DNA from: Escherichia coli
Lineage (GTDB): Bacteria > Pseudomonadota > Gammaproteobacteria > Enterobacterales > Enterobacteriaceae
Assembly: GCF_003018115.1 (NCBI RefSeq)
Contig: NZ_CP027457.1
Direction: 5' to 3' (one strand)
Length of the DNA stretch: 64,000 nucleotides
In this document: piece after piece, positions 1-49,046 of the stretch
How the letters are laid out: each line of letters begins with the position of its first letter
Numbering within the stretch: the stretch's first letter is position 1
The notes under the pieces: generated by a model
Seen by the model: the letters and a program-made list of their open reading frames with translations, nothing else
Databases searched by the model: none
What the model was told of the DNA's origin: nothing
Position numbers and translations under genes: made by a program

Positions 1-1429
1 CATTCATAAAATAGATATCACAGGTTTTATTATCTGTATTGATTATGATTTTTTCGAATGTTTTATAGGCAAGTGTACGACATAGCTCTCGCCCATTTTT
101 ACTGGTTAAGTCAATAGCATGAAAATCACCAAGTGAACTCACCGCTTTACTCTTCAAAGTTTTTAATGATACAGAAGCCCTTCGTAATTCCTTATCTAAT
201 ACTCTGATTTTTTCTGCTATAGCGGTAACTTCAGGCGCAACAGATAATGCAGCAATTAAATTATTAATTTTCATCTGGAGCTCAATAATTTTCAACTCTA
301 AAGTTTCATTAGCATCTTTCTTGTTTTCAACTGGTTGGATTTTACTACAATTAAAAAGCAACTCATTAATGATATTATAATCAACCAAATCTCTCTTTAT
401 TGATGGCCTGTCACATCGATGCAGTCTTCTCATCGGACAAACATAATAGCCATGCAAACTTCCAGATACCGCATGAACAATCATGGTATTACCACAAGCC
501 TCGCACTTCATAACTGTTCGAAGTAGATTTATCAACATAGGATTTTTGCTACTATTGCTAATACCAAAAGGTGCCAACCGAATTTCCTGCACAGCGTAAA
601 ACAAATCATCTGATATGACTCTGGGATAATAGCCAGCGATTTCACTTATTCCTTTACCTCTTGCACGATATGAAGGTACGCATATACCTATCAGAGCTTT
701 ATTCGCTAATAATTTTTCAATTACAGAAGGTCCCCATGCACTTTCTTTTCCTGAGAAATTCTTTACAGCATGATCATTTAAATACTTGGCTATTGCATTC
801 AATGAGCGCCTTTCCATCCTGAGTTTAAAAATTAGCTCAATAGTTTTCACCCTGTCGGGGTCTGGAACAAAAGCCGTTCTTTTGTCATCCAATGAGAGCC
901 ATCTCGGACAAGACGCCGTCATAATCGTGCCTGACTCCAGTGCATCCTGCCGTTTTTTCTTCCATGATAATTTAACCCGACTTGACTTTATCTCGCTTTC
1001 TTCATTTGCCCTTTGTGCTATAAGTATGGCTTTTATTAATGAATATGGCTCATTCAATGAGTCAATATTATAGACTGTATTATCGCAAAGAGTTATAACA
1101 TCAATACCGTGATTCAAAATCAATTTCAGACGCTCAATCGCTTCACCGACTTTTTCTCTTGAAAGTCTGTCCAGACTTTCAACTAACAATGTAGTCCCTG
1201 GCAATATATAACCATGTTCTATAGCATCTAAAAATTCCGAAAAAGCTCCTGATTGTGCATGCTTTCCATTGAATGCGCTTAACCCCAAATCTTCATACGT
1301 TACGGTATCAAGGTAATAATCACTATTTACCTTTAGCCATTCAGTAATAAGCCTTCTCTGGCGGTTTAATGAATCACCAGACATCTGACCTGGTGATGAA
1401 AATCGCATATATGCTATGGCTTTTTTCAT
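1..1429 (-). CDS. ybcK: Large serine recombinase (resolvase-type N-terminus), 5' portion only; gene runs off the window start
   Basis: Reverse-strand translation from ATG near 1429 reads MKKAIAYMRFSSPGQMSGDSLNRQRRLITEW... (resolvase catalytic Ser motif) and stays open to position 1; matches my recollection of DLP12 YbcK. Not in the ORF track because it lacks a stop in the window. Confidence 0.8.
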   Translation of the reverse strand, partial: MKKAIAYMRFSSPGQMSGDSLNRQRRLITEWLKVNSDYYLDTVTYEDLGLSAFNGKHAQSGAFSEFLDAIEHGYILPGTTLLVESLDRLSREKVGEAIERLKLILNHGIDVITLCDNTVYNIDSLNEPYSLIKAILIAQRANEESEIKSSRVKLSWKKKRQDALESGTIMTASCPRWLSLDDKRTAFVPDPDRVKTIELIFKLRMERRSLNAIAKYLNDHAVKNFSGKESAWGPSVIEKLLANKALIGICVPSYRARGKGISEIAGYYPRVISDDLFYAVQEIRLAPFGISNSSKNPMLINLLRTVMKCEACGNTMIVHAVSGSLHGYYVCPMRRLHRCDRPSIKRDLVDYNIINELLFNCSKIQPVENKKDANETLELKIIELQMKINNLIAALSVAPEVTAIAEKIRVLDKELRRASVSLKTLKSKAVSSLGDFHAIDLTSKNGRELCRTLAYKTFEKIIINTDNKTCDIYFMN

Positions 1430-1684
1430 GGTGACACCTGCTAAAGTATGCTTTTATAAACCTTAGTGGTGAGATATTATTTTTGTTTAATTTTTATTTA
1501 AAAAGACAATTAAGGTCACATTATCTTGAATATACAACAATAATCGTATTGCAATTTTCTTACACCATAATCTTGAAAGCACAAAAGAATGAATAAAAAC
1601 TAAAGACATTAACAAAAAGCATAAAACGAGGCCCATATAAATATACGAGCCTCCATATTTTAGTCGTTTAAAAACAAATTATTT

Positions 1685-2017
1685 TTAATGTGGTGTGCTT
1701 CGTGACAATAAATTAATAACCAACACACCGGCACAAATCAACATCATGCCTATAATGGCTGGCAGGTCCAACCGTTGGCCGAAAAATCCCCATGATAGTA
1801 AGCTAATCAGGACAATACCGACTCCTGACCAGATAGCATAAGCAATCCCTGTAGGAATATAAGCCAGCGTCTGAGCTAATAACCAGAATGATGCACAATA
1901 ACAAATAATTGTACCAACAGATGGCCATAACCGTGTAAAACCTTCTGAAAACTTCATTAAGGTTGTACCAATGACCTCTGCAAGTATTGCACCACCAAGA
2001 TAAATATAAGGATTCAT
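1685..2017 (-). CDS. emrE: SMR-family multidrug efflux protein EmrE (110 aa)
   Basis: Translation MNPYIYLGGAILAEVIGTTLMKFSEGFTRLWPSVGTIICYCASFWLLAQTLAYIPTGIAYAIWSGVGIVLISLLSWGFFGQRL... is essentially EmrE as I recall it; start taken at internal Met 19 of the track ORF. Confidence 0.95.
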   Translation of the reverse strand: MNPYIYLGGAILAEVIGTTLMKFSEGFTRLWPSVGTIICYCASFWLLAQTLAYIPTGIAYAIWSGVGIVLISLLSWGFFGQRLDLPAIIGMMLICAGVLVINLLSRSTPH

Positions 2018-2084
2018 AGCATATTCTTTCCTGTTCAAACTGGAGAGAATTGTACTACAGTTTGAACTCAACTCACCTGTTTCA

Positions 2085-2387
2085 TCATTGTGTACCCATT
2101 GATGTTCTTTTATATACCCTCAATACCCGTTTCATCGCGGCACTCTGGCGACACTCCTTAAAAATCAAATTCGTGCTCACCTTTCCTTCCCATTCTTCTC
2201 TGGTAGCGAACCGATAATACACCGTTCGCCAGACCTTACCATCAACGACCAGGATTCCTGCCCGCGCCATTTTAGCCGCAGCCTGATTTATGCTGGTTAC
2301 CGTTGCGCCTGTTACCGCGGCAACGTCCTGCGCACAGAATTTCTTATGAGTCCCCAGGTAATGAATAATTGCCTCTTTGCCCGTCAT
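2085..2387 (-). CDS. ren: Lambda Ren-like protein
   Basis: MTGKEAIIHYLGTH...AAKMARAGILVVDGKVWRTVYYRFATREE... is near-identical to lambda Ren as recalled; its start overlaps the P stop by 4 nt, as in lambda. Confidence 0.85.
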   Translation of the reverse strand: MTGKEAIIHYLGTHKKFCAQDVAAVTGATVTSINQAAAKMARAGILVVDGKVWRTVYYRFATREEWEGKVSTNLIFKECRQSAAMKRVLRVYKRTSMGTQ

Positions 2388-3085
2388 ACCCTTGCTCCTT
2401 TCAGCCCAAACTTAGCTTTGATTTCTGCGATCTTCGCCAGAGCCTGTGCACGATTTAGAGGTCTACCGCCCATGACAGGAAGTTGTTTTACTGGTTCAGG
2501 TATAGCCTCACCACGGTTAATTCGTGCGGTCATACAGGACAGTTCATCGGCAGCCTTGCGCCGTAATTCCGCGTCAGTCAACGCATTAGCCCGCATGTTC
2601 TGATACAGGTTGGTAACCAGCCAGTAGTGCGCGTTTGATTTCCACGGATAAGACTCTGCATCCGGATACAGCCCGCGCTTCCGGCAATACTCGTAAACCA
2701 TATCAACCAGCTCGCTGGCGTTTGGCAGCCCGGCGGTAACGGATGCTTCTTCCCGGCACCAGGCGACAAACTGCCCGGGTGATGGCAGGAATGGTCGATT
2801 CTGCCGACGGGCTACGCGCATTCCAGCGTTAACCTGTTCCATTGTGGTGATCCCGTTTTCCCGAAAAGCCAGCACCCACTGGCGGCGGATTTCGTTCAGT
2901 TCATTCTGGTCACGGTTAGCCAGGCTCGCCGGGAAAGTTGCCAGTAACTGGCTGAACACACCGTTGATGATCTGCGCTACCTGCTGTACCTGTGGCTTTT
3001 CGTCGTACTGTTCCGGCATGTTGTTGGCGATCCGACGCATCTGCTCACGGTCAAAGTTAACCATCTGTGCGGCGATGTTTTTCAT
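2384..3085 (-). CDS. P: Replication protein P (DnaB helicase loader), lambda P-like
   Basis: 233-aa translation MKNIAAQMVNFDREQMRRIANNMPEQYDEKPQVQQVAQIINGVF... matches lambda P over its full length as recalled. Confidence 0.9.
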   Translation of the reverse strand: MKNIAAQMVNFDREQMRRIANNMPEQYDEKPQVQQVAQIINGVFSQLLATFPASLANRDQNELNEIRRQWVLAFRENGITTMEQVNAGMRVARRQNRPFLPSPGQFVAWCREEASVTAGLPNASELVDMVYEYCRKRGLYPDAESYPWKSNAHYWLVTNLYQNMRANALTDAELRRKAADELSCMTARINRGEAIPEPVKQLPVMGGRPLNRAQALAKIAEIKAKFGLKGARV

Positions 3086-4101
3086 AGATCCACCCCGTAA
3101 ATCCAGTCAGTGTTTGTCAGGTCGAGTTTTGGTTTGCCGACTGTCACGCCAGCCTGTTGCTTGTTCCGGTTGATTTCGAGCTGGGTCCACTTGTCGCGGA
3201 GTTTGGCCGGACTCAGCACGTTACCGGACCAGAAGTTGTCCTGGCAGGCCCAGCGGAACAGTACACACATGTCGCGGTGGTTACGTCCATCACGTTCACG
3301 CATCAGACGGATATCGTTAGCCCACCCTGCAAAATTCGGTTTTCTGGCTGATGGCGCGATGGTCTTCACCATGTCAAACATCCACTCTGCGGCGGTCAGG
3401 TCTTCTGCTGTCCCCCACTTGCTGCCGCTCTGAATCGCAGCATCCGCTTTCACCACAGGAAGGTCGTTTTCTGGCAGGTCAGAGGATTCGCCAGAATTCT
3501 CGGACGAATAAGGTTTTATATTGTCTTTTGTTAGTTTGTCTTTTGTGTTTACCTGATTCGGGTAAGTGCCTTTACCTGATTTGGGTAAACTTTTCTTACC
3601 TGATTCAGGTAAATTTACCTCTTTCAGGTAAACTTTATTTTTCTTACCTGATTCGGGTAATTTTGACCATTCCCTGACCACATTATTAATGCCGATATTC
3701 CGCCCGCTCTGAATAAAAATCCCACGCTTTACCAGAACACTTTTTGCAGCAGAACACTTGTGCGGCAATATCCCGGTCAACTCGGAAAGTTGCTCGTTGC
3801 TCACCCAATCCAGTTTTTTATTAAAGCCATATGTTTTGCGCATGACAGCCAGGAAGACCAGAAGCTGGTGCTGTGTTAATCCGGCCAGCATTACAGCTTC
3901 CAGCAACTCATTTGCAATGCGCGTATAACCATCATCGAGATCTGCCACGCGCGGCTCCTTTTGTGCCGCATCCGGCACTGGAAAATTGAATATCTCAGCA
4001 GTGTTTGCCATAATTCCTCCCGCAATGAGTGTGTTACGATTTGCACCTGAAAGTCGGTTCTGTTGCCGCAGACCGACTTTCGCCATTTTTGAACCTGTCA
4101 T
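3082..4101 (-). CDS. O: Replication initiator O-like protein (lambda O-type N-terminal iteron-binding domain, divergent C-terminus)
   Basis: N-terminal VADLDDGYTRIANELLEAVMLAGLTQHQLLVFLAVMRKTYGFNK resembles lambda O; the gene contains the iteron array; the 4-nt overlap with P is typical. Confidence 0.85.
   Translation of the reverse strand: MTGSKMAKVGLRQQNRLSGANRNTLIAGGIMANTAEIFNFPVPDAAQKEPRVADLDDGYTRIANELLEAVMLAGLTQHQLLVFLAVMRKTYGFNKKLDWVSNEQLSELTGILPHKCSAAKSVLVKRGIFIQSGRNIGINNVVREWSKLPESGKKNKVYLKEVNLPESGKKSLPKSGKGTYPNQVNTKDKLTKDNIKPYSSENSGESSDLPENDLPVVKADAAIQSGSKWGTAEDLTAAEWMFDMVKTIAPSARKPNFAGWANDIRLMRERDGRNHRDMCVLFRWACQDNFWSGNVLSPAKLRDKWTQLEINRNKQQAGVTVGKPKLDLTNTDWIYGVDL
3550..3660. repeat. 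Replication origin iterons: five copies of about 16 bp TACCTGATTCGGGTAA (each TACC-N8-GGTA dyad) inside the O gene, next to an AT-rich stretch (about 3490-3545)
   Basis: Directly visible copies starting near 3550, 3573, 3597, 3616 and 3645; the same arrangement as ori-lambda inside O. Confidence 0.65.
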
Positions 4102-4643
4102 ATTGCCCCCAGCATGGTGGTGACCATCGCCATCAATGGACCAGCCAGATCTGGGTCCACTCGAAACATCGACACAATGCCTTCACTCATCTCCTTCAGT
4201 TTCTGGTGGCGTGGTGCGTTGAGAATGACCGCCTGCTTTGCCTCACTGAGTTCCTTTTCCATTTCAGCCAGCCGAGCCATGAAGCTATCCTGCTCAACCA
4301 GGTGGCCGCGATATTCCAGCGGTAGTACCGCCAGAATTGCCGGGGTCAGTTCACGCACGTTATTTCGGTATTTTTCAGAATCGAATTTGTTATCGAGGAA
4401 GCGGAACAGCTTCTGGCGTGCACGACTGACATCATCAGGAAAATCGATGGTGCCGCCGCCCTGTGCTCGATACTCATTCACAATGAGTGCGGCAACTACA
4501 TCCTGATTATCTTCAGCAGACCAGGCGCGGACGGCATCACGAATTTTTTCGTGGCCTGGCACCTGTTTTATTTGAGAACGATTTATCACCGCAGTCGGGC
4601 TAAATCCGCTAGTCTGTTGGTATGTAAGTGGTTGCATAATCAT
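4098..4643 (-). CDS. CII-position regulatory protein, possibly YdaT/CP76-family (181 aa)
   Basis: Occupies the cII position between cro-like and O; motifs EYRAQGGG and LTPAILAVLPLEY recall the YdaT/phage CII (CP76) family. Family assignment is from memory only. Confidence 0.5.
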   Translation of the reverse strand: MIMQPLTYQQTSGFSPTAVINRSQIKQVPGHEKIRDAVRAWSAEDNQDVVAALIVNEYRAQGGGTIDFPDDVSRARQKLFRFLDNKFDSEKYRNNVRELTPAILAVLPLEYRGHLVEQDSFMARLAEMEKELSEAKQAVILNAPRHQKLKEMSEGIVSMFRVDPDLAGPLMAMVTTMLGAI

Positions 4644-4667
4644 CGCCTTATCAGTTAACGCCGCAGA

Positions 4668-4895
4668 TTAGGCGGCAGAATTACTCGCGTTAAACAATGG
4701 TGCGAGGTCGGGACGAATATCTGCTGGCTTAATCTTTCCACCAGTGGCTGAGACAATTTTCATTACATAGCGGGCATCAATTCCGCCACCGTGTAGCCAA
4801 CGCCAAACAGTGGGCTGGGCTACACCGCATAGATCTGCCAGTCGTTTTTGACTACCTGTAATACTGATTGCGAGTTGAATGGTTTGATTTGTCAT
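4668..4895 (-). CDS. Cro-like HTH regulator (YdaS-like), 75 aa from the ATG
   Basis: Helix-turn-helix motif QKRLADLCGVAQPTVWRWL; divergent from the cI-like gene; AGGA 8 nt upstream of the ATG at 4895 (track ORF starts at a TTG at 4901). Confidence 0.6.
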   Translation of the reverse strand: MTNQTIQLAISITGSQKRLADLCGVAQPTVWRWLHGGGIDARYVMKIVSATGGKIKPADIRPDLAPLFNASNSAA

Positions 4896-5005
4896 TATCA
4901 ATTCCTATTGGTATTACAATGAATGGATAATAGCAATGCGTATTAACCATGGCAATAGCAAAACGTGTTTTGACCATCAATACGCAAGCGTATAAATTAA
5001 AACTT
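4896..5005. promoter_or_regulatory. Immunity-region divergent promoter/operator region (OR-like), with dyad sites ATAATAGCAATGCGTATTAA (about 4927-4946) and GCAATAGCAAAACGTGTTTTG (about 4952-4972)
   Basis: Intergenic between divergent cro-like and cI-like genes; dyad-symmetric repeats sharing AATAGCAA with the OL-like region at 7530-7577. Confidence 0.45.
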
Positions 5006-5698
5006 ATGAAAAAAGAAACTCTTGCTGATCGCTTAAACCTAGCGATGGAACAATCTGGGATGTCTCAAGGCGCTCTTGCAAAGGCGTCTGGCGTAGCTCA
5101 ACCCACAATCTGGAGACTGACAAGCGGCAACGCGCGCGGCTCAACAAAAATTGTTGAAATAGCGAATGCATTGGGTGTTCGAACAGAGTGGCTCTCATCA
5201 GGCATAGGCCCGATGAGAAATGACGGTCAACAATCAGGGAAGCCTACTGTCAACCATTCCAAATACTTCAAGATTGACGTTCTTGATATAGAAGTGAGTG
5301 CCGGGCCGGGAGTCATCAACCGTGAGTTTGTAGAAGTCCTACGCTCGGTTGAGTACTCGTTTGACGATGCTCGTCACATGTTCGATGGCAGGAAGGCGGA
5401 AAATATCCGCATCATTAACGTACGTGGTGACAGCATGTCAGGAACAATCGAACCAGGTGATCTGCTGTTCGTTGATATCACGGTTAAATCTTTCGACGGT
5501 GATGGCATCTATGCGTTTCTGTACGACGACACAGCCCATGTAAAGCGCCTGCAAATGATGAAGGATAAGCTGTTGGTTATCTCTGATAACAAGAGCTACT
5601 CACCGTGGGACCCGATCGAGAAAGACGAGATGAACCGGGTGTTCATTTTTGGGAAAGTCATCGGGAGCATGCCGCAGACCTACAGGAAGCATGGGTAG
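5006..5698 (+). CDS. cI: cI-like prophage repressor (N-terminal XRE-type HTH plus C-terminal S24/LexA-like autoprotease domain)
   Basis: HTH motif GMSQGALAKASGVAQPTIWRL; C-terminal region with GDSM Ser motif (RGDSMSGTIEPGDLLFVD) and downstream Lys (HVKRLQ). Start could also be the upstream ATG at 4949 (track); 5006 leaves room for operators. Confidence 0.8.
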   Translation: MKKETLADRLNLAMEQSGMSQGALAKASGVAQPTIWRLTSGNARGSTKIVEIANALGVRTEWLSSGIGPMRNDGQQSGKPTVNHSKYFKIDVLDIEVSAGPGVINREFVEVLRSVEYSFDDARHMFDGRKAENIRIINVRGDSMSGTIEPGDLLFVDITVKSFDGDGIYAFLYDDTAHVKRLQMMKDKLLVISDNKSYSPWDPIEKDEMNRVFIFGKVIGSMPQTYRKHG

Positions 5699-5733
5699 GT
5701 AGTATGTAAAGAATTACCTTTGGTTGATTTGTA

Positions 5734-5763
5734 ATAGCTACCGATTACGTTATCGGTAGCTAT
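5734..5763 (+). terminator. Perfect hairpin (12-bp arms ATAGCTACCGAT / ATCGGTAGCTAT, 6-nt loop) followed by an A/T-rich tract; possible terminator or attenuator after cI
   Basis: Inverted repeat read directly from sequence; followed by aagaaattttt. Confidence 0.35.
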
Positions 5764-5821
5764 AAGAAATTTTTATGTCTTTAACTGTGTTTATTTATTC
5801 AATACTAGTTGGACTATAGCA

Positions 5822-6844
5822 ATGAAAGATAACAGACAAAAAGTCGTTCATTATAAAAAAGCAGTAATCCCACACAGCAAATCATCATTACAAAACATAC
5901 TACTTAGTATTATAGGTGAGGGCGGCGTTGCAGAAAAAGTACTTAGTAGACAAGAAAAAATAACACCTTCAGATGAAAATTCGGGGTATCGTTTCTTAAA
6001 TAAAAGCGACACATACAAAACTATACTTTTTGGGCAACTGGTTTTATTTGAAAAAGACAAAAGCCAGTCTCTATTAGAGCTTAGTGATAATGTTAAATTT
6101 TATGACATTAACTCCATCACGTCTAATGATATAATTATTGATGGAGATAAACGTAGTGACAAAAAAAGAGAGTTTGTAGATTCAATTTTATATTTTGGTG
6201 TACTAAACAACCATGTCATGATCGTTCAATCCACATCGCTTCGAGCAAGGGAGCTTGAGGCGCATTTGAATTGGCTAATTAATACATTCACAGATGAAAA
6301 AGAATCTGTGTTAATGCTTCAAGATAAGCCATCCGAAGAAACGATGAAAAAAATGGAGAAAGCACCAGCCAAGAGCATAAAAATTGGTGGATTACCCATT
6401 ACTTCAGAAGTTAAAAATTCAGAGAACCAAACACCCTCCTTTTCAAATGGTTCGGTGAAGACAATAAAATACCGCCCAATAGGGAAAGGAGGTGCGCTAC
6501 TAAAAGCATTTTTTGGCGATAACTGGGCAAATGATATAAACATTAAAGATTCATTAGATGAGGCCAATTTACAAGTAAGCCTCGAGATTACATACTTCAG
6601 AAAAACAAATGATAGCGGTCAAGCTGTTATAGACAGTATTGCTACCTCACTACGACATCTAGATGAGGATGATATTAGCATCAAACTTCAAGGCGGTGGG
6701 GAAATAACGGGAAAAGAGATAAAATTATCCGGAAAAATTAGCGTTGAACATAACAATGGCATTATTGATGAAAATGATTTATTCTTAAAAATGCATAAGT
6801 GGCTGTTCTCAAAACTTGATGCCGGAGAATTGGTTGCAAAATAA
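5822..6844 (+). CDS. Hypothetical 340-aa soluble protein, first gene of a rexA-position two-gene module (candidate phage-exclusion component)
   Basis: Long ORF in a markedly AT-rich segment immediately downstream of cI on the same strand; no family recognised by eye; no predicted TM segment. Confidence 0.6.
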   Translation: MKDNRQKVVHYKKAVIPHSKSSLQNILLSIIGEGGVAEKVLSRQEKITPSDENSGYRFLNKSDTYKTILFGQLVLFEKDKSQSLLELSDNVKFYDINSITSNDIIIDGDKRSDKKREFVDSILYFGVLNNHVMIVQSTSLRARELEAHLNWLINTFTDEKESVLMLQDKPSEETMKKMEKAPAKSIKIGGLPITSEVKNSENQTPSFSNGSVKTIKYRPIGKGGALLKAFFGDNWANDINIKDSLDEANLQVSLEITYFRKTNDSGQAVIDSIATSLRHLDEDDISIKLQGGGEITGKEIKLSGKISVEHNNGIIDENDLFLKMHKWLFSKLDAGELVAK

Positions 6845-6865
6845 CCTACCAAAAGGAGGGCGATA

Positions 6866-7372
6866 ATGAAATCGAACATCATCCACCTTATTGGTATGTT
6901 GGTCTTCTATTTTGCTGGTTACTTTTTGTTCAAGTTAGCATTGGGCTATATTACACCGGGTGTTGTCCTAACAGCTCCGTGGGCTGTGGTTGGACTCATG
7001 CAATTGCCATTATCATATTGTATACAAGCCATTTTTAAGGCAAATGAGGCCAATGACCACTCGTCTTTAACCCCTAGTGAGGTTAGGCGATTAGTGCCAA
7101 TAGTCAAATCCAAGAGACTGAAATTGGTTTTATTATTAGCTTTCTATGTATTTTCAACTTTGTTTGTAATCTTGGGGTTAATAGCAAGCACAAATGATCA
7201 AGCCCTACTCTTCAGGGTCTTAAAAATTTCAGGTGGATTACTCTTTATTTCTCTCTATACCAGTGTATTCGTTCATAAAATAATGGTTGAGCTTCAAGAG
7301 TTTAAAGCGTTATTAAACCGAAGAGAATCAGAGAAGAAGGAAAGAGAGTCACTCCTTGATAGATTAAAATGA
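6866..7372 (+). CDS. Hypothetical 168-aa membrane protein with four predicted TM helices and a charged C-terminal tail, second gene of the rexB-position module
   Basis: Hydrophobic stretches IIHLIGMLVFYFAGYFLFKLALGYI, VVLTAPWAVVGLMQLPLSYCIQAIF, LKLVLLLAFYVFSTLFVILGLIAS and GGLLFISLYTSVFVHKIMV; RBS AAGGAGG upstream; 21-nt gap from the upstream gene. Confidence 0.6.
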   Translation: MKSNIIHLIGMLVFYFAGYFLFKLALGYITPGVVLTAPWAVVGLMQLPLSYCIQAIFKANEANDHSSLTPSEVRRLVPIVKSKRLKLVLLLAFYVFSTLFVILGLIASTNDQALLFRVLKISGGLLFISLYTSVFVHKIMVELQEFKALLNRRESEKKERESLLDRLK

Positions 7373-7381
7373 CCCCCCCTC

Positions 7382-7408
7382 CCCGGCCGTCGTGCCGGGT
7401 TTTCTTTT
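7382..7408 (+). terminator. Rho-independent terminator (stem CCCGGC/GCCGGG, loop CGTCGT, then TTTTCTTTT)
   Basis: Read directly from sequence, 10 nt after the stop of the membrane-protein gene. Confidence 0.65.
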
Positions 7409-7529
7409 GCCTCCCCTCATCACACACCGTTCAAAAAACCACCATAACCCCCGCTTCAGTTATCGCTATGCGATGCAAGTCACAAAATTAATTCCTTTTG
7501 CTATCAAACAGTTAATATCAAAATACATC

Positions 7530-7577
7530 AATCAATAGCAATAAGTATTGATATCACCAATAGCAATAGCTATTATT
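7530..7577. promoter_or_regulatory. Candidate OL-like operators / pL region: TCAATAGCAATAAGTATTGA and CCAATAGCAATAGCTATTATT
   Basis: Dyad-symmetric sites sharing the AATAGCAAT core with the OR-like region; located upstream of the N-position ORF, as OL/pL are in lambda. Confidence 0.35.
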
Positions 7578-7649
7578 ACCATGTCGCAACAACACAACGA
7601 TACGGCAACCACCTGATTCGCCGTTGCGATGACCGCTTAGATCCGCAGC

Positions 7650-8060
7650 TTGAATTTCAGCAGGCTCCGGGGAGTGCGAGGGGTGAAGCGGACGCGTGAA
7701 CGTCGGTGTGACCAGCTGAAATCAACTCAACACTTCATACCTCAGTCGCTTCAACGAGGCGGCTTAGTTATGACAACCGGCGGCCATCCACCGCCTGAAT
7801 ACGCGCAGAAGTCTCTATATGTTCAGCAGCCCAGCTTACGGGCAGGAGTTTTTATGGTTCATCAACATTACGGAACTCAGACCGTTAATCGCGGTGCCGT
7901 CCGGCCAGGTATGCTGGTTAAACACAAAGATGGTACCTGGACGGCATCAGCTAATTTGCGCGGTCGGCTTTACTTGCATCGCGGCATCGAACGAACGTAC
8001 ACAAAAGATTTGCTCGTGGAGGTTTACCTGAATGGTACTGGCGGTGGTCTGAGCCACTAA
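7650..8060 (+). CDS. Putative N-like antitermination protein (arginine-rich motif near N-terminus); start codon uncertain
   Basis: Track ORF begins at a TTG; translation contains RGVKRTRERR, resembling the lambda N arginine-rich motif (TRRRERR). Alternative starts: GTG near 7683, ATG at 7770, ATG at 7854 (the last with AGGAG 5 nt upstream). Confidence 0.35.
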   Translation: MNFSRLRGVRGVKRTRERRCDQLKSTQHFIPQSLQRGGLVMTTGGHPPPEYAQKSLYVQQPSLRAGVFMVHQHYGTQTVNRGAVRPGMLVKHKDGTWTASANLRGRLYLHRGIERTYTKDLLVEVYLNGTGGGLSH

Positions 8061-8064
8061 CTAC

Positions 8065-8370
8065 TCACTTGTTTGGGCCGTGTGGAGCCAAAGCAAATTC
8101 AAGGTTGTAGATACTCCCATCAGGGGCTTTGAAATCAACCTCAAACCGAGATGGCGGATTGAATGGATCGAGTACATTTTCTGCTACGCATGTAGATCTC
8201 CAATTGATATGGCCTTTGCCAAGCGAGCGAGATTCCCACCAAGCTCTCCAGGTCTGGTCTTGCGGTTGATCACTCCCCTTTTCCCTTACATACCAATGAT
8301 TCTTTTTCGACTGCTTACCCATTTCTGCGGTTGGGTACATCGGAGAAGACTTTAACTTATCAATCAGCAT
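8065..8370 (-). CDS. Hypothetical 101-aa protein encoded antisense to the early-left operon
   Basis: ORF on the opposite strand with AAGGTG 6 nt upstream of the ATG at 8370 (track extends to an upstream GTG at 8379); no recognisable family; no TM segment. Confidence 0.4.
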   Translation of the reverse strand: MLIDKLKSSPMYPTAEMGKQSKKNHWYVREKGSDQPQDQTWRAWWESRSLGKGHINWRSTCVAENVLDPFNPPSRFEVDFKAPDGSIYNLEFALAPHGPNK

Positions 8371-8508
8371 TCTAGACACCTTATTTATCAGATTTTGAGC
8401 AAGACATAGTGTGATCCAACATTTTGATTAATCAAGCGAGTTCATTCAAACAACTATGCAGTTAACGCACTGTCTGGATCCGCACATCAAAATTTCAGGA
8501 GTTTATCC

Positions 8509-8805
8509 ATGAACGCTTATTACATTCAGGATCGTCTTGAGGCTCAGAGCTGGGCGCGTCACTACCAGCAGATCGCCCGTGAAGAGAAAGAGGCAGAACT
8601 GGCAGACGACATGGAAAAAGGCCTGCCCCAGCACCTGTTTGAATCACTCTGCATCGATCATTTGCAACGCCACGGGGCCAGCAAAAAAGCCATTACCCGT
8701 GCGTTTGATGACGATGTTGAGTTTCAGGAGCGCATGGCAGAACACATCCGGTACATGGTTGAAACCATTGCTCACCACCAGGTTGATATTGATTCAGAGG
8801 TATAA
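8509..8805 (+). CDS. gam: Gam (RecBCD inhibitor), 98-aa form
   Basis: [60 protein letters not shown]... matches lambda Gam as recalled; AGGAG RBS. Confidence 0.95.
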
Positions 8806-8810
8806 AACGG

Positions 8811-9596
8811 ATGAGTACAGCACTCGCAACGCTGGCTGGGAAGCTGGCTGAACGTGTCGGCATGGATTCTGTCGACCCACAGGAACTGATCACCACTCTT
8901 CGCCAGACAGCATTTAAAGGCGATGCCAGCGATGCGCAGTTCATCGCATTGCTGATCGTCGCCAACCAATACGGCCTTAATCCGTGGACGAAAGAAATTT
9001 ACGCCTTCCCCGATAAGCAGAACGGCATCGTTCCGGTGGTGGGCGTTGATGGCTGGTCCCGCATCATCAACGAAAACCAGCAGTTTGACGGCATGGACTT
9101 TGAACAGGACAACGAATCCTGCACATGCCGGATTTACCGCAAAGACCGCAATCATCCGATCTGCGTTACCGAGTGGATGGATGAATGCCGCCGCGAACCA
9201 TTCAAAACCCGCGAAGGCAGAGAAATCACGGGGCCGTGGCAGTCGCATCCCAAACGGATGTTACGGCATAAAGCCATGATTCAGTGTGCCCGTCTCGCCT
9301 TCGGATTTGCTGGTATCTATGACAAGGATGAAGCCGAGCGCATTGTCGAAAATACCGCATACACTGCAGAACGTCAGCCGGAACGCGACATCACTCCGGT
9401 TAACGATGAAACCATGCAGGAGATTAACACTCTGCTGATTGCCCTGGATAAAACATGGGATGACGACTTATTGCCGCTCTGTTCCCAGATATTTCGCCGC
9501 GACATTCGCGCATCGTCAGAACTGACACAGGCCGAAGCAGTGAAAGCTCTTGGATTCCTGAAACAGAAAGCCACTGAGCAGAAGGTGGCAGCATGA
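8811..9596 (+). CDS. bet: Bet (Red-beta single-strand annealing protein), 261 aa
   Basis: Full-length match to lambda Bet as recalled ([66 protein letters not shown]...). Confidence 0.95.
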
Positions 9597-10273
9597 CACC
9601 GTACATTATCCTGCAGCGTACCGGGATCGACGTGAGAGCTGTCGAACAGGGGGATGATGCATGGCACAAATTACGGCTCGGCGTCATCACCGCTTCAGAA
9701 GTTCACAACGTGATAGCAAAGCCCCGATCAGGAAAGAAGTGGCCTGACATGAAAATGTCCTACTTCCACACCCTGCTGGCTGAGGTTTGCACCGGTGTGG
9801 CTCCGGAAGTTAATGCTAAGGCGCTGGCCTGGGGAAAACAGTACGAGAACGACGCCAGAACCCTGTTTGAATTCACTTCCGGCGTGAATATTACTGAATC
9901 CCCGATCATCTATCGCGACGAAAGTATGCGCACCGCCTGCTCTCCCGATGGTTTATGCAGTGACGGCAACGGCCTTGAACTGAAATGCCCGTTTACCTCC
10001 CGGGATTTCATGAAATTCCGGCTCGGTGGTTTCGAGGCAATAAAATCGGCTTACATGGCCCAGGTGCAGTACAGCATGTGGGTGACGCGAAAAGATGCCT
10101 GGTACTTTGCCAACTATGACCCGCGCATGAAGCGTGAAGGCCTGCATTATGTCGTGATTGAGCGGAATGAAAAGTACATGGCGAGTTTTGACGAGATGGT
10201 GCCGGAGTTCATCGAAAAAATGGACGAGGCACTGGCTGAAATTGGTTTTGTATTTGGGGAGCAATGGCGATGA
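9593..10273 (+). CDS. exo: Lambda exonuclease (Red-alpha), 226 aa
   Basis: [54 protein letters not shown]... matches lambda Exo as recalled; ATGA overlap with the bet stop. Confidence 0.95.
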
Positions 10274-10452
10274 CGCATCCTCACGATAATATCCGGGTAG
10301 GCGCGATCACTTTCGTCTACTCCGTTACAAAGCGAGGCTGGGTATTTCCCGGCCTTTCTGTTATCAGAAATCCACTGAAAGCACAGCGGCTGGCTGAGAA
10401 GATAAATAATAAACGGGAGGCGGTATGCACAAAGCATCTCCTGTTGAGTTAA
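10264..10452 (+). CDS. Small hypothetical phage protein (62 aa), lambda orf60a/orf61/orf63-position
   Basis: ORF overlapping the exo stop; position corresponds to the small orfs between exo and xis in lambda. Confidence 0.45.
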
Positions 10453-10622
10453 GAACGAGTATTGAGATGGCACATAGCCTTGCTCAAATTGGAGTCAGGT
10501 TTGTGCCAATACCAGTAGAAACAGACGAAGAATTTCATACGTTAGCCACATCCCTTTCACAAAAGCTGGAAATGATGGTGGCGAAAGCAGAAGCAGAAGC
10601 AGATGAGAGAGACCAGGTATGA
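10425..10622 (+). CDS. Small hypothetical phage protein (65 aa)
   Basis: ORF with GGGAGG-type RBS; acidic C-terminus; translationally coupled to the next ORF through an ATGA overlap. Confidence 0.5.
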   Translation: MHKASPVELRTSIEMAHSLAQIGVRFVPIPVETDEEFHTLATSLSQKLEMMVAKAEAEADERDQV

Positions 10623-10702
10623 CAACCACTGAATGCATTTTTCTGGCAGCGGGCTTCATATTCTGTGTGCTTATGCTTGCCGACATGGGGCTTGTTCAAT
10701 GA
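10619..10702 (+). CDS. Candidate 27-aa single-TM peptide (MTTTECIFLAAGFIFCVLMLADMGLVQ), below the ORF-track size cutoff
   Basis: ATG overlaps the upstream stop (ATGA) and its own stop overlaps the downstream ATG (ATGA); hydrophobic core consistent with one membrane helix. Confidence 0.35.
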   Translation: MTTTECIFLAAGFIFCVLMLADMGLVQ

Positions 10703-10914
10703 CACCTCAGCAAGAAAACGCCCTTCGCAGCATTGCCCGTCAGGCTAATTCTGAAATCAAAAAAGCCAGACAGCATTTTCCGGATAAAAACGTCGATGAC
10801 ATTTGCCGTAGCGTACTAAAGAAGCACCGCGAAACGGTAACGCTGATGGGATTCACACCGACTCATTTAAGCCTGGCGATCGGCATGTTGAACGGCGTCT
10901 TTAAGGAACGGTGA
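10699..10914 (+). CDS. Small hypothetical phage protein (71 aa from MTPQQ...)
   Basis: Internal ATG of track ORF 10633-10914, chosen because it is translationally coupled to the upstream small ORF. Confidence 0.5.
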   Translation: MTPQQENALRSIARQANSEIKKARQHFPDKNVDDICRSVLKKHRETVTLMGFTPTHLSLAIGMLNGVFKER

Positions 10915-11012
10915 ACATGAAAAGCAAAATCATCAGGGAGCTACAGGCTCCTTTTTTATTATTCGCATTTACCCTCAAGCGTATTAACCAACAATTCAGG
11001 GATTAATGAAAG

Positions 11013-11231
11013 ATGGCAGACATCATTGATTCAGCATCAGAAATCGAAGAATTACAGCGCAATACAGCAATAAAAATGCGTCGTCTGAACTACCAGACTG
11101 TATCCGCAACTCATTGTTGTGAGTGTGGCGATCCGATAGATGAGCGAAGACGCCTGGCTGTTCAGGGTTGTCGGACTTGTGCAAGTTGCCAGGAGGAGAT
11201 CGAACTTAAGAACAAACAATGGGGACTGTGA
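11013..11231 (+). CDS. TraR/DksA-family C4 zinc-finger protein (72 aa)
   Basis: CxxC...17...CxxC motif (CCECGDPIDERRRLAVQGCRTCASC) typical of TraR/DksA C4 zinc fingers; common in lambdoid early-left regions. Confidence 0.7.
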   Translation: MADIIDSASEIEELQRNTAIKMRRLNYQTVSATHCCECGDPIDERRRLAVQGCRTCASCQEEIELKNKQWGL

Positions 11232-11278
11232 TGGCCTCAAAGCAGCAAATTTCAACATCATCCAACTGAGGTGTAAAA

Positions 11279-11557
11279 ATGTTCAGAATCATTTTTCCTA
11301 ACACCTGGTACGTCGACCACCACGGCACTCCCTGCAAAATCCTGCGTTCTACCCACAACAAAGTTCACTACATCCGAAAAGGCAGAACATGTATCGCCAG
11401 CATGTTCCGCTTTAATCATGACTTTGAACCTGTGAATAAAGCTGATGCAGATCGGATAGCAGAAGAGATCGAAACGGCAGAACACATTAAGAAGTTACGT
11501 GACATGCGTTCAAAAAGCAGAGGTAACCATGGAATCATACAGCCTCACACTCGATGA
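11279..11557 (+). CDS. Hypothetical phage protein (92 aa), upstream of xis
   Basis: ORF with AGGTG-type RBS in the position occupied by ea-type accessory genes in lambda; no family recognised. Confidence 0.45.
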   Translation: MFRIIFPNTWYVDHHGTPCKILRSTHNKVHYIRKGRTCIASMFRFNHDFEPVNKADADRIAEEIETAEHIKKLRDMRSKSRGNHGIIQPHTR

Positions 11558-11900
11558 GGCCTGTCAGTTTCTTAAGATATCCAGACCAACCGCCACCAAC
11601 TGGATACGAACAGGCCGCCTACAGGCAACACGTAAAGATCCAACCAAGCCAAAATCTCCTTACCTCACAACACGGCAAGCCTGCATTGCGGCGCTTCAGT
11701 CTCCGCTGCATACTGTCCAGGTGAGCGCGGGTGATGGCATAACAGAGGAAAGAAAATGTCACTCTTCCGCAGAAATGAAATATGGTATGCCTCGTATTCG
11801 CTCCCGGGCGGGAAACGAATTAAGGAATCTCTTGGCACAAAGGACAAGCGGCAAGCTCAGGAGTTGCACGACAAGCGAAAAGCAGAACTCTGGCGAGTAG
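11529..11900 (+). CDS. xis: Excisionase-like (AlpA/Xis-type HTH) ORF; reading frame runs about 145 nt into int, so the true 3' end is uncertain
   Basis: [36 protein letters not shown] is an AlpA-like HTH; immediately upstream of the integrase. Confidence 0.45.
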
Positions 11901-12919
11901 AAAAGCTAGGGGATTTACCTGATGTCACTTTTGAAGAGGCCTGCCTAAGATGGCTTGAGGAAAAAGCTGATAAAAAATCTCTCGATTCAGATAAAAGCCG
12001 GATTGAGTTCTGGCTTGAACATTTTGAGGGTATAAGGCTTAAAGATATCTCGGAGGCAAAGATTTACTCTGCTGTAAGCAGAATGCATAACAGAAAGACG
12101 AAAGAAATATGGAAACAGAAAGTTCAGGCCGCCATCAGGAAAGGTAAAGAACCGCCTGTTTATGAACCAAAGCCAGTATCAACTCAGACAAAGGCAAAGC
12201 ATCTTGCCATGATAAAGGCCATTCTCCGTGCTGCAGAACGCGACTGGAAGTGGCTGGAAAAAGCGCCTGTCATCAAGATACCAGCGGTCAGAAACAAGCG
12301 AGTCAGATGGCTGGAAAAGGAGGAAGCAAAACGCCTTATTGATGAGTGCCCCGAACCACTGAAATCTGTCGTCAAGTTTGCGCTGGCAACTGGTCTGAGA
12401 AAGTCGAACATCATAAATCTGGAATGGCAACAAATCGACATGCAGCGACGAGTTGCCTGGGTGAATCCAGAAGAGAGCAAATCAAACCGCGCCATTGGCG
12501 TGGCGCTGAACGATACCGCCTGTAAAGTGTTGCGTGATCAAATAGGCAAGCATCACAAATGGGTGTTTGTACATACCAAGGCGGCTAAGCGAGCAGATGG
12601 AACATCAACGCCTGCGGTCAGGAAGATGCGCATCGACAGCAAGACATCATGGCTATCAGCTTGTCGTCGTGCAGGAATTGAAGATTTCCGTTTCCATGAC
12701 CTCAGACACACCTGGGCAAGCTGGCTGATTCAGTCAGGCGTCCCATTATCAGTGCTTCAGGAAATGGGCGGATGGGAGTCCATAGAAATGGTTCGTAGGT
12801 ATGCTCACCTTGCGCCTAATCATTTGACAGAGCATGCGAGGAAAATAGACGACATTTTTGGTGATAATGTCCCAAATATGTCCCACTCTGGAATTATGGA
12901 GGATATAAAGAAGGCGTAA
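11756..12919 (+). CDS. intD: Tyrosine integrase, DLP12 IntD-type (387 aa)
   Basis: Full-length match to DLP12 IntD as recalled ([46 protein letters not shown]...; C-terminal [10 protein letters not shown]...RYAHL catalytic region); stop 16 nt from the tRNA 3' end. Confidence 0.95.
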
Positions 12920-12934
12920 CTGATTGAATTGTAA

Positions 12935-13011
12935 TGGCGCGCCCTGCAGGATTCGAACCTGCGGCCCACGACTTAGAAGGTCGTTGCTCTATCCAACTGA
13001 GCTAAGGGCGC
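12935..13011 (-). tRNA. argU: tRNA-Arg (anticodon UCU)
   Basis: Reverse complement reads GCGCCCTTAGCTCAGTTGGATAGAGCAACGACCTTCTAAGTCGTGGGCCGCAGGTTCGAATCCTGCAGGGCGCGCCA; cloverleaf with TCT anticodon and encoded CCA. Confidence 0.95.
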
Positions 13012-13253
13012 GTTGATACCGCAATGCGGTGTAATCGCGTGAATTATACGGTCAACCCTTGCTGAGTCAATGGCTTTTGATCTGGTTGCTGAACAAGTGA
13101 ACGACCGCGTCTGATTTTCTGATTTATTTCGCTATAGCGGCAAACAAACGCACACCGCTGCGCGTCTGAATCAAGAAAACCCGTATTTTCATGTATCAAA
13201 GTACAATTTACCGCCCTAACGGAAAATTGTCCGCTCCTATGAGACTGGTAACT

Positions 13254-47632: not shown

Positions 47633-48040
47633 GTGTCGAATCCTTATCCAAAACAAGAGGTAACTCTCATGCTTCATACTGCCAATCCCGTCATCAAACA
47701 CAAAGCCGGTTTGCTCAATCTGGCTGAAGAACTCAGCAACGTATCAAAAGCTTGTAAAATCATGGGCGTTTCGCGTGATACGTTTTATCGTTACCGCGAA
47801 CTGGTCGCTGAAGGCGGTGTGGATGCGCAGATTAATCGTAGTCGCCGCGCTCCTAACCTTAAGAACCGTACCGATGAGGCAACTGAACAGGCTGTTGTTG
47901 ATTACGCCGTCGCTTTCCCGACACATGGTCAGCACCGGGCCAGCAACGAGCTGCGTAAACAGGAGGTTTTTATCTCCGACAGTGGTGTCCGTTCTGTCTG
48001 GTTACTCCATAACCTTGAGAATCTCAAAAGACGATACTGA
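47633..48040 (+). pseudogene. ybbD: Transposase N-terminal fragment (IS481-like HTH region), ybbD-like remnant
   Basis: 135-aa ORF resembling the HTH region of IS481-type transposases (VSRDTFYRYRELVAEGG...INRSRRAPN); no catalytic domain follows. Confidence 0.5.
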
Positions 48041-48094
48041 ACAAATTTTATCAGGTGACGTTCCGTAAAAAGTTGTATGGAGTTCTCGATGCAG

Positions 48095-48190
48095 TCGGCG
48101 CGACTATCAGTACCCCCGCTGAACCCTGGACTATCGGGCCGCCGTACTGGGGCATGTCACCCTGGCGTGCCGCTGGTTTTCCGCTAATGG
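48095..48190 (-). pseudogene. Orphan Rhs 5'-end fragment (start codon mutated ATG to ATT)
   Basis: Reverse strand encodes ...[31 protein letters not shown]..., a degenerate copy of the RhsD N-terminus ([32 protein letters not shown]); roughly 80% nucleotide identity to 53158-53228 by eye. Confidence 0.5.
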
Positions 48191-48554
48191 TTTATTTCCT
48201 CTTTCTTTCCCAGCAAGAATTTATTTTAATCCGGAAGGATTATTTATTTTCAGATAGGGACTCACATTAAACACGTAACATTTTAATTAATGCATGGCTG
48301 AATATGTATTACACAATGTCAGATATCGTAAAAGACCAGTGCAATTCTATGTAAACTCTCTGACTGTTCATTTTATTTGTTGTTTCAGGGTCGGAACTCA
48401 CCCTCAATAAACAACTGAATACGAGTAGATATTCATCGTCTGAGCTATATGGCTTTACACAATAGCCGACATGTCTTTTCTCAGTCAGGAATTTTACTTT
48501 TCCTCACTACGAAGTTGACGACTTCGATATGGGATAGACTCTTAATTCAAGCAA

Positions 48555-49046
48555 TTACTCTGCACAAGCATCAGGCAATCCAGCTCCAATATTTGTTATA
48601 AAATAATGCGTAACATTAATTTCACCAACAAAAAAAAGGTTTACGCTATCCCCTTGCCCTGGTATTTTACCATATTTACACCACACTTTTTTTGTATCTG
48701 GATCATTCTCTGATACGATTTTCGCCACTTGTTCCCTGGCCCTCACTGTCAATGTTTTCTTAAACCTACCCCCATCATCATTTGTTAGGGAAAAATAAGA
48801 AAAAAAATAATCATCTTCTACATTTGTGTATATTGATATATCCACCGCTACGTGCGGAAAAAAATCTGGGAGCCATGTAAAAACTCCATCATTTTCTGGT
48901 ATTGCCATATAGTTTATGTAATGTTTACTTACAAGAGATTCATCTTTGTATAAATAAAGATAAGTAATTACGCATAAAACAACAATGATTATAATAGCAA
49001 AAATAAATATTATCATCTTTGATAGATTACTTGAGATAGCCAGCAT
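48555..49046 (-). CDS. Probable Rhs immunity protein (N-terminal TM segment)
   Basis: AT-rich ORF immediately downstream of, and overlapping, the rhsD 3' end; hydrophobic N-terminus [22 protein letters not shown]. Confidence 0.6.

Follow-up and report, generated by a model that had tools for sequence, protein, structure and literature searches.

Does the prophage arm found at argU in the Escherichia coli contig NZ_CP027457.1 (assembly GCF_003018115.1) share the decay of the DLP12 prophage of E. coli K-12, or does it still hold the genes for its own recombination and replication? This question is raised by a window of 64,000 nucleotides (nt), the whole stretch of DNA analysed here, in which an earlier note, made from the letters alone, had described a DLP12-type prophage with full-length gam, bet, exo, O, P and ren and a complete immunity region. 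All together, our data indicate that positions 1-12934 of the window are very probably the int-proximal arm of a lambdoid prophage inserted in the 3' end of argU, and represent an undecayed form of K-12 DLP12.

The prophage arm at argU and its K-12 counterpart

The junction between the prophage and the chromosome comprises the following features:

11529-11900, plus strand: xis, 123 amino acids (aa); matches phrog_2907 'excisionase' (E 6e-46, profile positions 2-117 of 117) and, at the N-terminus, TIGR01764
11756-12919, plus strand: int, IntD-type tyrosine integrase, 387 aa; phrog_10426 and phrog_1
12935-13011, minus strand: argU, tRNA-Arg(UCU); ARAGORN, and Rfam tRNA at 72 bits

The sole tRNA found in the window by ARAGORN was a tRNA-Arg with the anticodon tct (UCU), namely argU, on the minus strand at 12935-13011, and the end of the int gene is 15 bp away. 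By tblastn, Int shows 99.5% identity to K-12 IntD and 100% identity to the Int of PhiR68_2 (PV340576), a temperate relative of lambda. The xis ORF (open reading frame) overlaps int by 145 nt, and its product is 100% identical to PhiR68_2 Xis and 97.5% identical to what K-12 keeps of xisD (residues 43-123). In addition, the int-argU-fimZ junction is 99.7% identical to K-12. Since int adjoins argU, its product is almost identical to IntD, and emrE-ylcJ-ybcK follow ren, the assignment to a DLP12-type prophage at argU proposed in the earlier note is borne out.

The att core at the prophage-chromosome junction is made up of the 3' 47 nt of argU (12935-12981), and is present once in the window. The DLP12 feature of K-12 likewise begins within argU in the MG1655 annotation, and the far end of K-12 DLP12 has a 47-bp argU-like repeat (PMC6379469). 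The PhiR68_2 record matches the window up to 12986 and begins within the argU-homologous core. The IntD-type tyrosine integrase would be the agent of insertion at argU. On the opposite side, the window begins inside ybcK; the Q, lysis, terminase and structural genes and the second att site (attR) lie to the left of position 1, as does the counterpart of the DLP12 far-end late region quuD/nmpC/essD-rrrD-rzpD.

To place the arm among its relatives, positions 1-13100 of the window were compared by megablast with 5,426 complete E. coli genomes. In 82 of these genomes, a single place, the argU-fimZ-sfm locus, contained 80% or more of the query. The nearest copy, that of strain VG35A2, showed 100% coverage and 98.6% identity over 13.1 kb; together with OkiPb01681, it provides the two nearest copies, both of which have complete Q, lysis, terminase, head and tail genes.

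From left to right, as read from our own ORF table and from the annotation of the VG35A2 copy, the arm contains ybcK, ylcJ, emrE, ren, P, O, a gene for a YdaT-domain protein, cro, cI, orf340 and orf168, and then kil, orf104, gam, bet, exo, the homologues of lambda orf60a, orf63 and orf61, a TraR/DksA-like gene, a DUF4222 gene, xis and int, up to argU. The arm is therefore a mosaic, in which the DLP12-specific int-xis and emrE-ylcJ-ybcK segments are combined with lambda-like segments (gam to orf61, as well as ren, P and the 3' part of O) and with an immunity module that has no N gene and is of the type found in Perceval (OV696612, genus Bievrevirus), a prophage of the adherent-invasive E. coli (AIEC) strain LF82.

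The annotated DLP12 region of MG1655 was then aligned to the window. K-12 is collinear with the window in these blocks, given with their DNA identity:

Window 1-2298: ybcK, ylcJ, emrE and the 3' part of ren, 96.6%
Window 2297-2695: the 5' part of ren and the P fragment peaD, 93.7%
Window 9994-10299: exoD, 100%
Window 11661-13100: the 3' part of xis, intD, argU and the flank, 99.7%

K-12 DLP12 has the same integration site and att core, and the same emrE-ylcJ-ybcK genes after ren, and wherever K-12 sequence is kept the collinear DNA is 93.7-100% identical. Unlike the window, K-12 lacks 7,298 bp corresponding to window 2696-9993, with end points in the middle of P and of exo, and a second block of 1,361 bp corresponding to 10300-11660, from orf60a to xis codon 44. 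Because of these losses, K-12 is left without an immunity region, O, the origin of replication (ori), kil, gam and bet, while P, exo and xis persist as fragments. Specifically, P is reduced to the C-terminal fragment peaD, of which only residues 131-233 match, and the loss at xis removed the first 44 codons, which encode the helix-turn-helix (HTH). In addition, the insertion sequence (IS) IS3 (IS3C) splits ren in K-12 at about window position 2297; no IS3 is present in the ren gene of the window. The damage that the earlier note described for K-12 (exo and ren disrupted, and the intervening segment lost) is thus confirmed, and the deletion of 10300-11660 is to be added to it. The arm can serve as a reference for what K-12 DLP12 has lost, namely two deletions totalling 8.66 kb and one IS3 insertion.

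A side observation concerns the two K-12 deletion junctions (2695 joined to 9994, and 10299 joined to 11661), both of which read GTA/CCTC, the slash marking the junction. The right-hand end points of the deletions read TTTACCTCC and CTTACCTCA in the intact copy. The shared junction suggests a common mechanism or a sequence preference, and may also be due to chance.

Early genes and immunity region

The genes and sites for replication and recombination on the arm are:

2085-2387, minus strand: ren, 100 aa, 88% identical to lambda Ren; intact
2384-3085, minus strand: P, helicase loader, 233 aa, 97.9% identical to lambda P over the full length; intact
3082-4101, minus strand: O, replication initiator, 339 aa; phrog_277 'replication initiation O-like' (E 1.5e-160) and TIGR01610, the O N-terminal domain
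3516-3665: predicted ori inside O, with five iterons (3548-3665) and an A+T-rich stretch (3516-3545)
8509-8805, plus strand: gam, 98 aa (short form), 98% identical to lambda Gam residues 41-138
8811-9596, plus strand: bet, 261 aa, 99.6% identical to lambda, full length
9593-10273, plus strand: exo, 226 aa, 97.8% identical to lambda, full length

None of the 23 listed ORFs has an internal stop, and every early protein except orf104 is full length when compared by tblastn with Perceval, PhiR68_2 and two chromosomal copies. Alignment to K-12 DLP12 and lambda, by which the earlier note had proposed that its description be checked, showed that the K-12 deletions are not common to the window and revealed no frameshift, IS or internal stop in the named genes: unlike in K-12, gam, bet, exo, O, P and ren are uninterrupted and full length, both in the alignment and by tblastn.

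Similarity to lambda at the DNA level is confined to 2112-3548 (93.7%; ren, P and the 3' third of O) and 8492-11208 (96.5%; gam to orf61), the Red module gam-bet-exo (8509-10273, plus strand) being 96.5% identical to lambda. The O protein has 66% identity to its lambda counterpart, from which it diverges in the N-terminal domain. A repeat search within the O gene identified the predicted ori, consisting of five iterons of 17-23 bp built around a palindromic TTACCTGATTCGGGTAA core and spaced 19-29 bp, adjoined at 3516-3545 by two short A+T-rich repeats. The lambda similarity stops exactly at 3548, the edge of the iterons. This position is a classic lambdoid module boundary, which separates the specificity half of O and its iterons from the half that interacts with P.

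The immunity region contains the following genes and predicted sites:

4098-4643, minus strand: regulator in the cII position, of the YdaT-domain type; phrog_163 'CII-like transcriptional activator' (E 1e-66), YdaT-domain in the VG35A2 annotation
4668-4895, minus strand: cro-like repressor; phrog_35 (E 1e-24), 100% identical to the Perceval and PhiR68_2 homologues
4929-4996: oR, three predicted operator repeats of the AATAGCAA type, 25 bp apart (4929, 4954, 4979)
5006-5698, plus strand: cI repressor with an HTH and an S24 autopeptidase domain; Pfam HTH_3 and Peptidase_S24 (E 1.9e-18)
7382-7399, plus strand: terminator-like hairpin, CCCGGCCGTCGTGCCGGG followed by TTTTCTTTTG, which closes the cI-orf340-orf168 unit
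7533-7581, plus strand: oL/pL, two predicted operator repeats, 25 bp apart (7533, 7558)

In the immunity region, cI, cro and the cII analogue are full-length ORFs, and operator repeats are found at both oR and oL. Only five AATAGCAAW sites occur in the 64 kb, and four of them lie within oR or oL. A promoter scan placed a pR-like promoter (4955-4927, minus strand) and a pRM-like promoter (4970-4998, plus strand), which ends 8 nt before the cI ATG, over oR, while a pL-like promoter, TTGATA-17-TATTAT (7548-7576, plus strand), overlaps oL. In the cI protein, the Ala-Gly site (SAGPG), the serine (GDSMSG) and the lysine (VKRL) align with A111-G112, S149 and K192 of lambda cI; given the S24 domain and these conserved cleavage residues, RecA-dependent induction is to be expected.

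The earlier note had called the early region lambda-like. The term fits only the Red module together with ren, P and the 3' part of O, and not the immunity module, which is of a different type; neither N nor cIII was found. Specifically, cI, cro and the cII-position gene gave no BLASTP match among the lambda early proteins at E<=1e-3, and the direct comparison of cI with lambda cI returned 24% identity (E 0.027). With the HK022 early region, the sole similarity was a stretch of 178 bp at 69%, inside the cI gene. Among the ORFs downstream of pL no match to a PHROG for N was detected, and no cIII was found in the arm. A search for nut or put elements gave no boxA near pL or pR and no Rfam family except tRNA. 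Only 24 bp separate cro from the cII analogue, which leaves no room for nutR. The pL leader folds no better than shuffled sequence (z 0.42), and terminator-like sites are found at 10334 and 10935.

The remaining genes of the early region are:

7854-8060, plus strand: kil, FtsZ inhibitor of the KilR/PRK11354 family; phrog_294 (E 3e-36), NF008465
8065-8379, minus strand: orf104, small antisense cargo gene; phrog_16212 (E 1e-69), function not known in that family
10264-10914, plus strand: homologues of lambda orf60a, orf63 and orf61, with 97%, 91% and 93% aa identity
11013-11231, plus strand: TraR/DksA-like zinc-finger gene; phrog_54 and VG35A2 annotation
11279-11557, plus strand: DUF4222 gene; phrog_285 and VG35A2 annotation

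For kil, a longer ORF of 136 aa (7650-8060) was considered and rejected, as the family profiles match only from about residue 60-69, close to an ATG at 7854 that has a strong Shine-Dalgarno sequence, AGGAG, in front of it; the 68-aa form was adopted. No BLASTP match was obtained between Kil and lambda Kil. The kil gene differs from those of Perceval and PhiR68_2 at 20-24 positions, mainly third codon positions. Within the pL leader (7583-7853, plus strand), the 204 nt upstream of kil differ from the same two phages by only 1-6 nt, with no codon-position bias, and are thus much more conserved than kil itself. An arginine-rich in-frame stretch located there, VKRTRERRCDQL, resembles the arginine-rich motif of N; it was rejected as an N gene, the region being without a coding-type pattern of substitution.

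Located between kil and gam, the orf104 gene is antisense to the pL operon and is absent from Perceval and PhiR68_2. Among the complete E. coli genomes it is covered only by VG35A2 and E9, and it gave neither a Pfam or PADLOC match nor a tblastn match in 50,697 phage records. Finally, the orf63 homologue carries an in-frame 6-bp insertion at 10585-10590 with respect to VG35A2, which makes its product 65 aa instead of 63 aa and keeps the frame.

Probable competence of the arm and alternative readings

That the arm would be competent for recombination and replication, which the earlier note had considered plausible, is a well-supported inference, because the early proteins are near-identical to those of phages known to grow and because the predicted cis-acting sites and the cI autocleavage residues are present. 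Specifically, for each of the 23 ORFs except orf104, the product has a full-length counterpart of 94-100% identity in Perceval and/or PhiR68_2. LF82 carries Perceval as an active prophage, which made virions and was isolated as plaques (PMC9928086). PhiR68_2 (PhiR68.2) was used in efficiency-of-plaquing assays and forms plaques on ECOR13 (PMC13190303), and its record holds the full lambda-type set of head, tail, lysis and Q genes together with emrE and ybcK. In six or more other phage isolates, the match extends through the integrase gene (PhiR34_1, PhiR30_1, PhiR26_1, 2G7b, ev243 and Turner). In this respect the main finding is not new: argU-integrating relatives of DLP12 that are intact and inducible (PhiR68_2, PhiR34_1, PhiR30_1, 2G7b and ev243) had been sequenced and grown before.

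These elements depict the following scenario. In the lysogen, cI, by binding to the operator repeats of oR and oL, would silence both pR, with cro, the cII analogue, O, P and ren, and pL, with kil, gam, bet, exo, xis and int; cI would at the same time be co-expressed with the two cargo genes downstream of it. Induction would start with the RecA-stimulated self-cleavage of cI. Following this step, O would bind the five iterons in its own gene and P would recruit DnaB, so that replication could begin, while Gam, Bet and Exo would supply Red recombination, and Xis together with Int would excise the element at the argU core. The strain thus probably carries an SOS-inducible phage able to mobilise emrE, and such a phage could supply Red functions that recombine with incoming lambdoid phages.

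A number of points weigh against this scenario. The early arm is all of the prophage that the window shows, the late half and the second att site being to the left of its start; point mutations that inactivate a protein without truncating it may be present; and the promoters, operators and iterons are predictions from sequence. Moreover, no N, nut or put-like element was found by which delayed-early transcription would pass the terminator-like sites at 10334 and 10935. The xis position is also annotated in relatives, by the Prokaryotic Genome Annotation Pipeline (PGAP) in RefSeq, as a pseudogene of 21-22 codons, 'partial HTH, missing C-terminus' (L001, 29522-29587; L013, 29514-29576).

As to the last two points, the missing N is best read as a difference of type and not as a defect, because lambdoid phages without N are known (PMC12315714) and because Perceval, an active relative, has the same arrangement, with no N gene annotated. 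The label of xis as a pseudogene was considered and rejected, since the match of the 123-aa ORF to phrog_2907 runs from end to end, and a phage that grows has the ORF at 100% identity; the PGAP call at the xis of argU prophages is probably a systematic annotation miss.

It is rather unlikely that the prophage is defective, through damage in the late region beyond the window or through a subtle regulatory or missense change, with the arm surviving only as a reservoir of Red and replication genes. What speaks for such decay is that the window ends in ybcK, with Q, the lysis, terminase, head and tail genes and attR out of view, and that a DLP12 element was reported at argU in 74% of 638 Escherichia/Shigella genomes in one survey (PMC6379469), against the 82 of 5,426 genomes with at least 80% of the arm. 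In addition, the arm is 3-4% divergent from its nearest copy across ybcK to O, and is therefore not a recent clonal copy of a proven phage. However, late regions are complete in the nearest chromosomal copies of this arm, and a long decay should have left at least one frameshift or IS among the 23 ORFs, where none was seen. Because the two nearest copies have complete late regions, a complete prophage is likely to be present here as well.

An origin as a recent hybrid, in which a resident DLP12-like remnant (int-xis and emrE-ybcK) was repaired by homologous recombination with an incoming lambdoid phage, in place of an ancestral intact DLP12, appears unlikely to us. It would account for the patchy divergence from VG35A2, which amounts to 0-2 differences per 500 bp over 4000-8500 and 10000-13000 and to 8-31 per 500 bp over 1-4000, for the agreement of the module boundaries with the edges of lambda homology at 2112, 3548, 8492 and 11208, and for the K-12 exoD fragment, which is 100% identical to the window as compared with 93.7-96.6% for the flanking segments. 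Nevertheless, mosaicism of this kind is normal for lambdoid phages and cannot separate a rescued element from one that never decayed, and free phages such as PhiR68_2 already carry the int-xis-Red-O-P-ren-emrE-ybcK combination. The idea that the arm is the same decayed remnant as K-12 DLP12, with pseudogenes misread as intact, has only the commonness of DLP12 remnants as a prior expectation in its favour and is refuted for practical purposes by the alignment, in which the 7.3-kb and 1.36-kb segments are present, ren is without IS3, and P, exo, xis and ren are full length.

Cargo genes and comparison with known phages

The cargo genes after ren and in the rexAB position are as follows:

1-1429, minus strand: ybcK, large serine recombinase; 476 of 508 codons visible, cut by the window start
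1487-1636, minus strand: ylcJ, 49 aa, 88% identical to K-12 YlcJ
1685-2017, minus strand: emrE, multidrug efflux transporter of the small multidrug resistance (SMR) type, 110 aa; 99% identical to K-12, 100% to Perceval and PhiR68_2
5822-6844, plus strand: orf340, candidate RexA-like protein, 340 aa, in the rexA position
6866-7372, plus strand: orf168, membrane protein, 168 aa, four predicted transmembrane (TM) helices, in the rexB position

The presence of emrE and of a ybcK-like recombinase as in K-12, stated in the earlier note, was found for a complete emrE; ybcK is present too, but only as far as the window start allows it to be seen. YbcK is 97.9% identical at the aa level to K-12 and 98.7% to the Perceval homologue, and is collinear with the annotated ybcK of VG35A2. 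The suggestion that the arm delimits where cargo genes were inserted agrees with both sites. The emrE-ylcJ-ybcK genes start right after ren, where the lambda DNA similarity ends (2112), and the G+C content (GC) of window 1-2000 is 0.36. The second cargo site is the rexAB position, with the low-GC cassette formed by orf340 and orf168 (GC of 0.37 for window 6001-7000).

A gap of 21 bp separates orf168 from orf340; orf168 is encoded on the cI strand, and the terminator at 7382-7399 comes after it. The hydrophobic segments of the orf168 product extend approximately over residues 5-27, 33-57, 86-108 and 113-137. Neither protein matched Pfam, NCBIfam or PADLOC, and PHROGs lists both under 'unknown function'; the PADLOC defence models likewise matched none of orf340, orf168, kil, orf104, the YdaT-type protein and ybcK. 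When orf340 and orf168 were compared with RexA and RexB, no BLASTP match was obtained and the hhalign probability was 0.2 for both, and a profile search of the PDB sequences for a link between the two pairs gave no match. A fold comparison, which constitutes the sole link to RexA/RexB, assigned to the orf340 model a fold of the RexA type; the predicted local distance difference test score (pLDDT) of the model is 70, of moderate confidence.

RexB is likewise described as a membrane protein with four helices. Like the orf340-orf168 pair, the RexA/RexB system of lambda and the Rex-like systems of actinobacteriophages (Sbash, CarolAnn and Toast) consist of two genes that directly follow cI on its strand and are closed by a terminator, and the partner of the RexB type is, like orf168, a small protein with four predicted TM helices. 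The sizes differ, RexA being 279 aa as compared with 340 aa for orf340, and RexB 144 aa as compared with 168 aa for orf168. In Perceval, LF82_152, the homologue of orf168, was transcribed 81-fold above background in the lysogen and was the strongest Perceval gene there (PMC9928086).

The pairing of orf340 with orf168 is also kept elsewhere: in a prophage of Klebsiella aerogenes the pair is flanked by the Q gene and by hicAB/holin, and in Aeromonas veronii it stands at the end of an element with a P4-like primase and a P2-type capsid protein. The locations of the cassette are thus the rex position of Perceval-type lambdoids, the Q-lysis interval in K. aerogenes and the element end in A. veronii. 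We consider it an evenly balanced proposal that orf340 and orf168 would form an unnamed, sequence-divergent superinfection-exclusion or defence cassette of the RexA/RexB type, which moves as a unit between the defence hotspots of unrelated mobile elements. If this is true and the cassette is functional, the reach of the Rex family across Gammaproteobacteria would be far wider than sequence searches show. The RexAB-like cassette is the more interesting by-product of the analysis, as a candidate new branch of a classic and mechanistically unresolved exclusion system.

Beyond argU, the chromosomal flank at 13012-37900 (fimZ, sfm, folD, cysS, purEK and allantoin genes) has its best match at 99.5% among the 5,426 genomes, the closest being O169:H41 strains. 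Further on, positions 49027-53256 (minus strand) encode a rearrangement hotspot (RHS) element core protein of 1,409 aa (NF041261, 2737 bits). The GC of the RHS gene is 0.61-0.66 at 50001-53000, and an A+T-rich segment with a GC of 0.37 lies at 48001-49000, beyond its 3' end. By synteny with K-12, this locus is probably rhsD.

By comparing the arm with phage lambda, it appears that the two have in common the order int-xis...exo-bet-gam...cI/cro...O-P-ren, an ori located in O as iterons and an A+T-rich stretch, and a cI that is an S24 autopeptidase. Lambda differs in the N-terminal domain of O and in the iteron specificity, and its int and xis are unrelated. Unlike lambda, the window has no N, nutL/nutR, cIII, ral, sieB or ea genes, carries emrE-ylcJ-ybcK in place of ninB-ninC after ren, and has a kil that belongs to another NCBIfam family than lambda Kil, namely KilR/PRK11354.

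Perceval shares with the arm cI (98%), Cro (100%), the cII analogue (97%), O (96%), P (98%) and Ren (96%), the orf340/orf168 pair (99.7% and 99.4%), and also emrE, ybcK, kil and the Red genes; it has another integrase and another excisionase, and hence another integration specificity, the similarity ending at 11508. PhiR68_2 shares Int, Xis, Bet, Gam and Cro at 100%, cI at 99%, and O, P and Ren at 96-98%, together with the same emrE and ybcK; unlike the window, it carries another gene pair in the rex position, with no homologue of orf340 or orf168, and its cII analogue is 95% identical.

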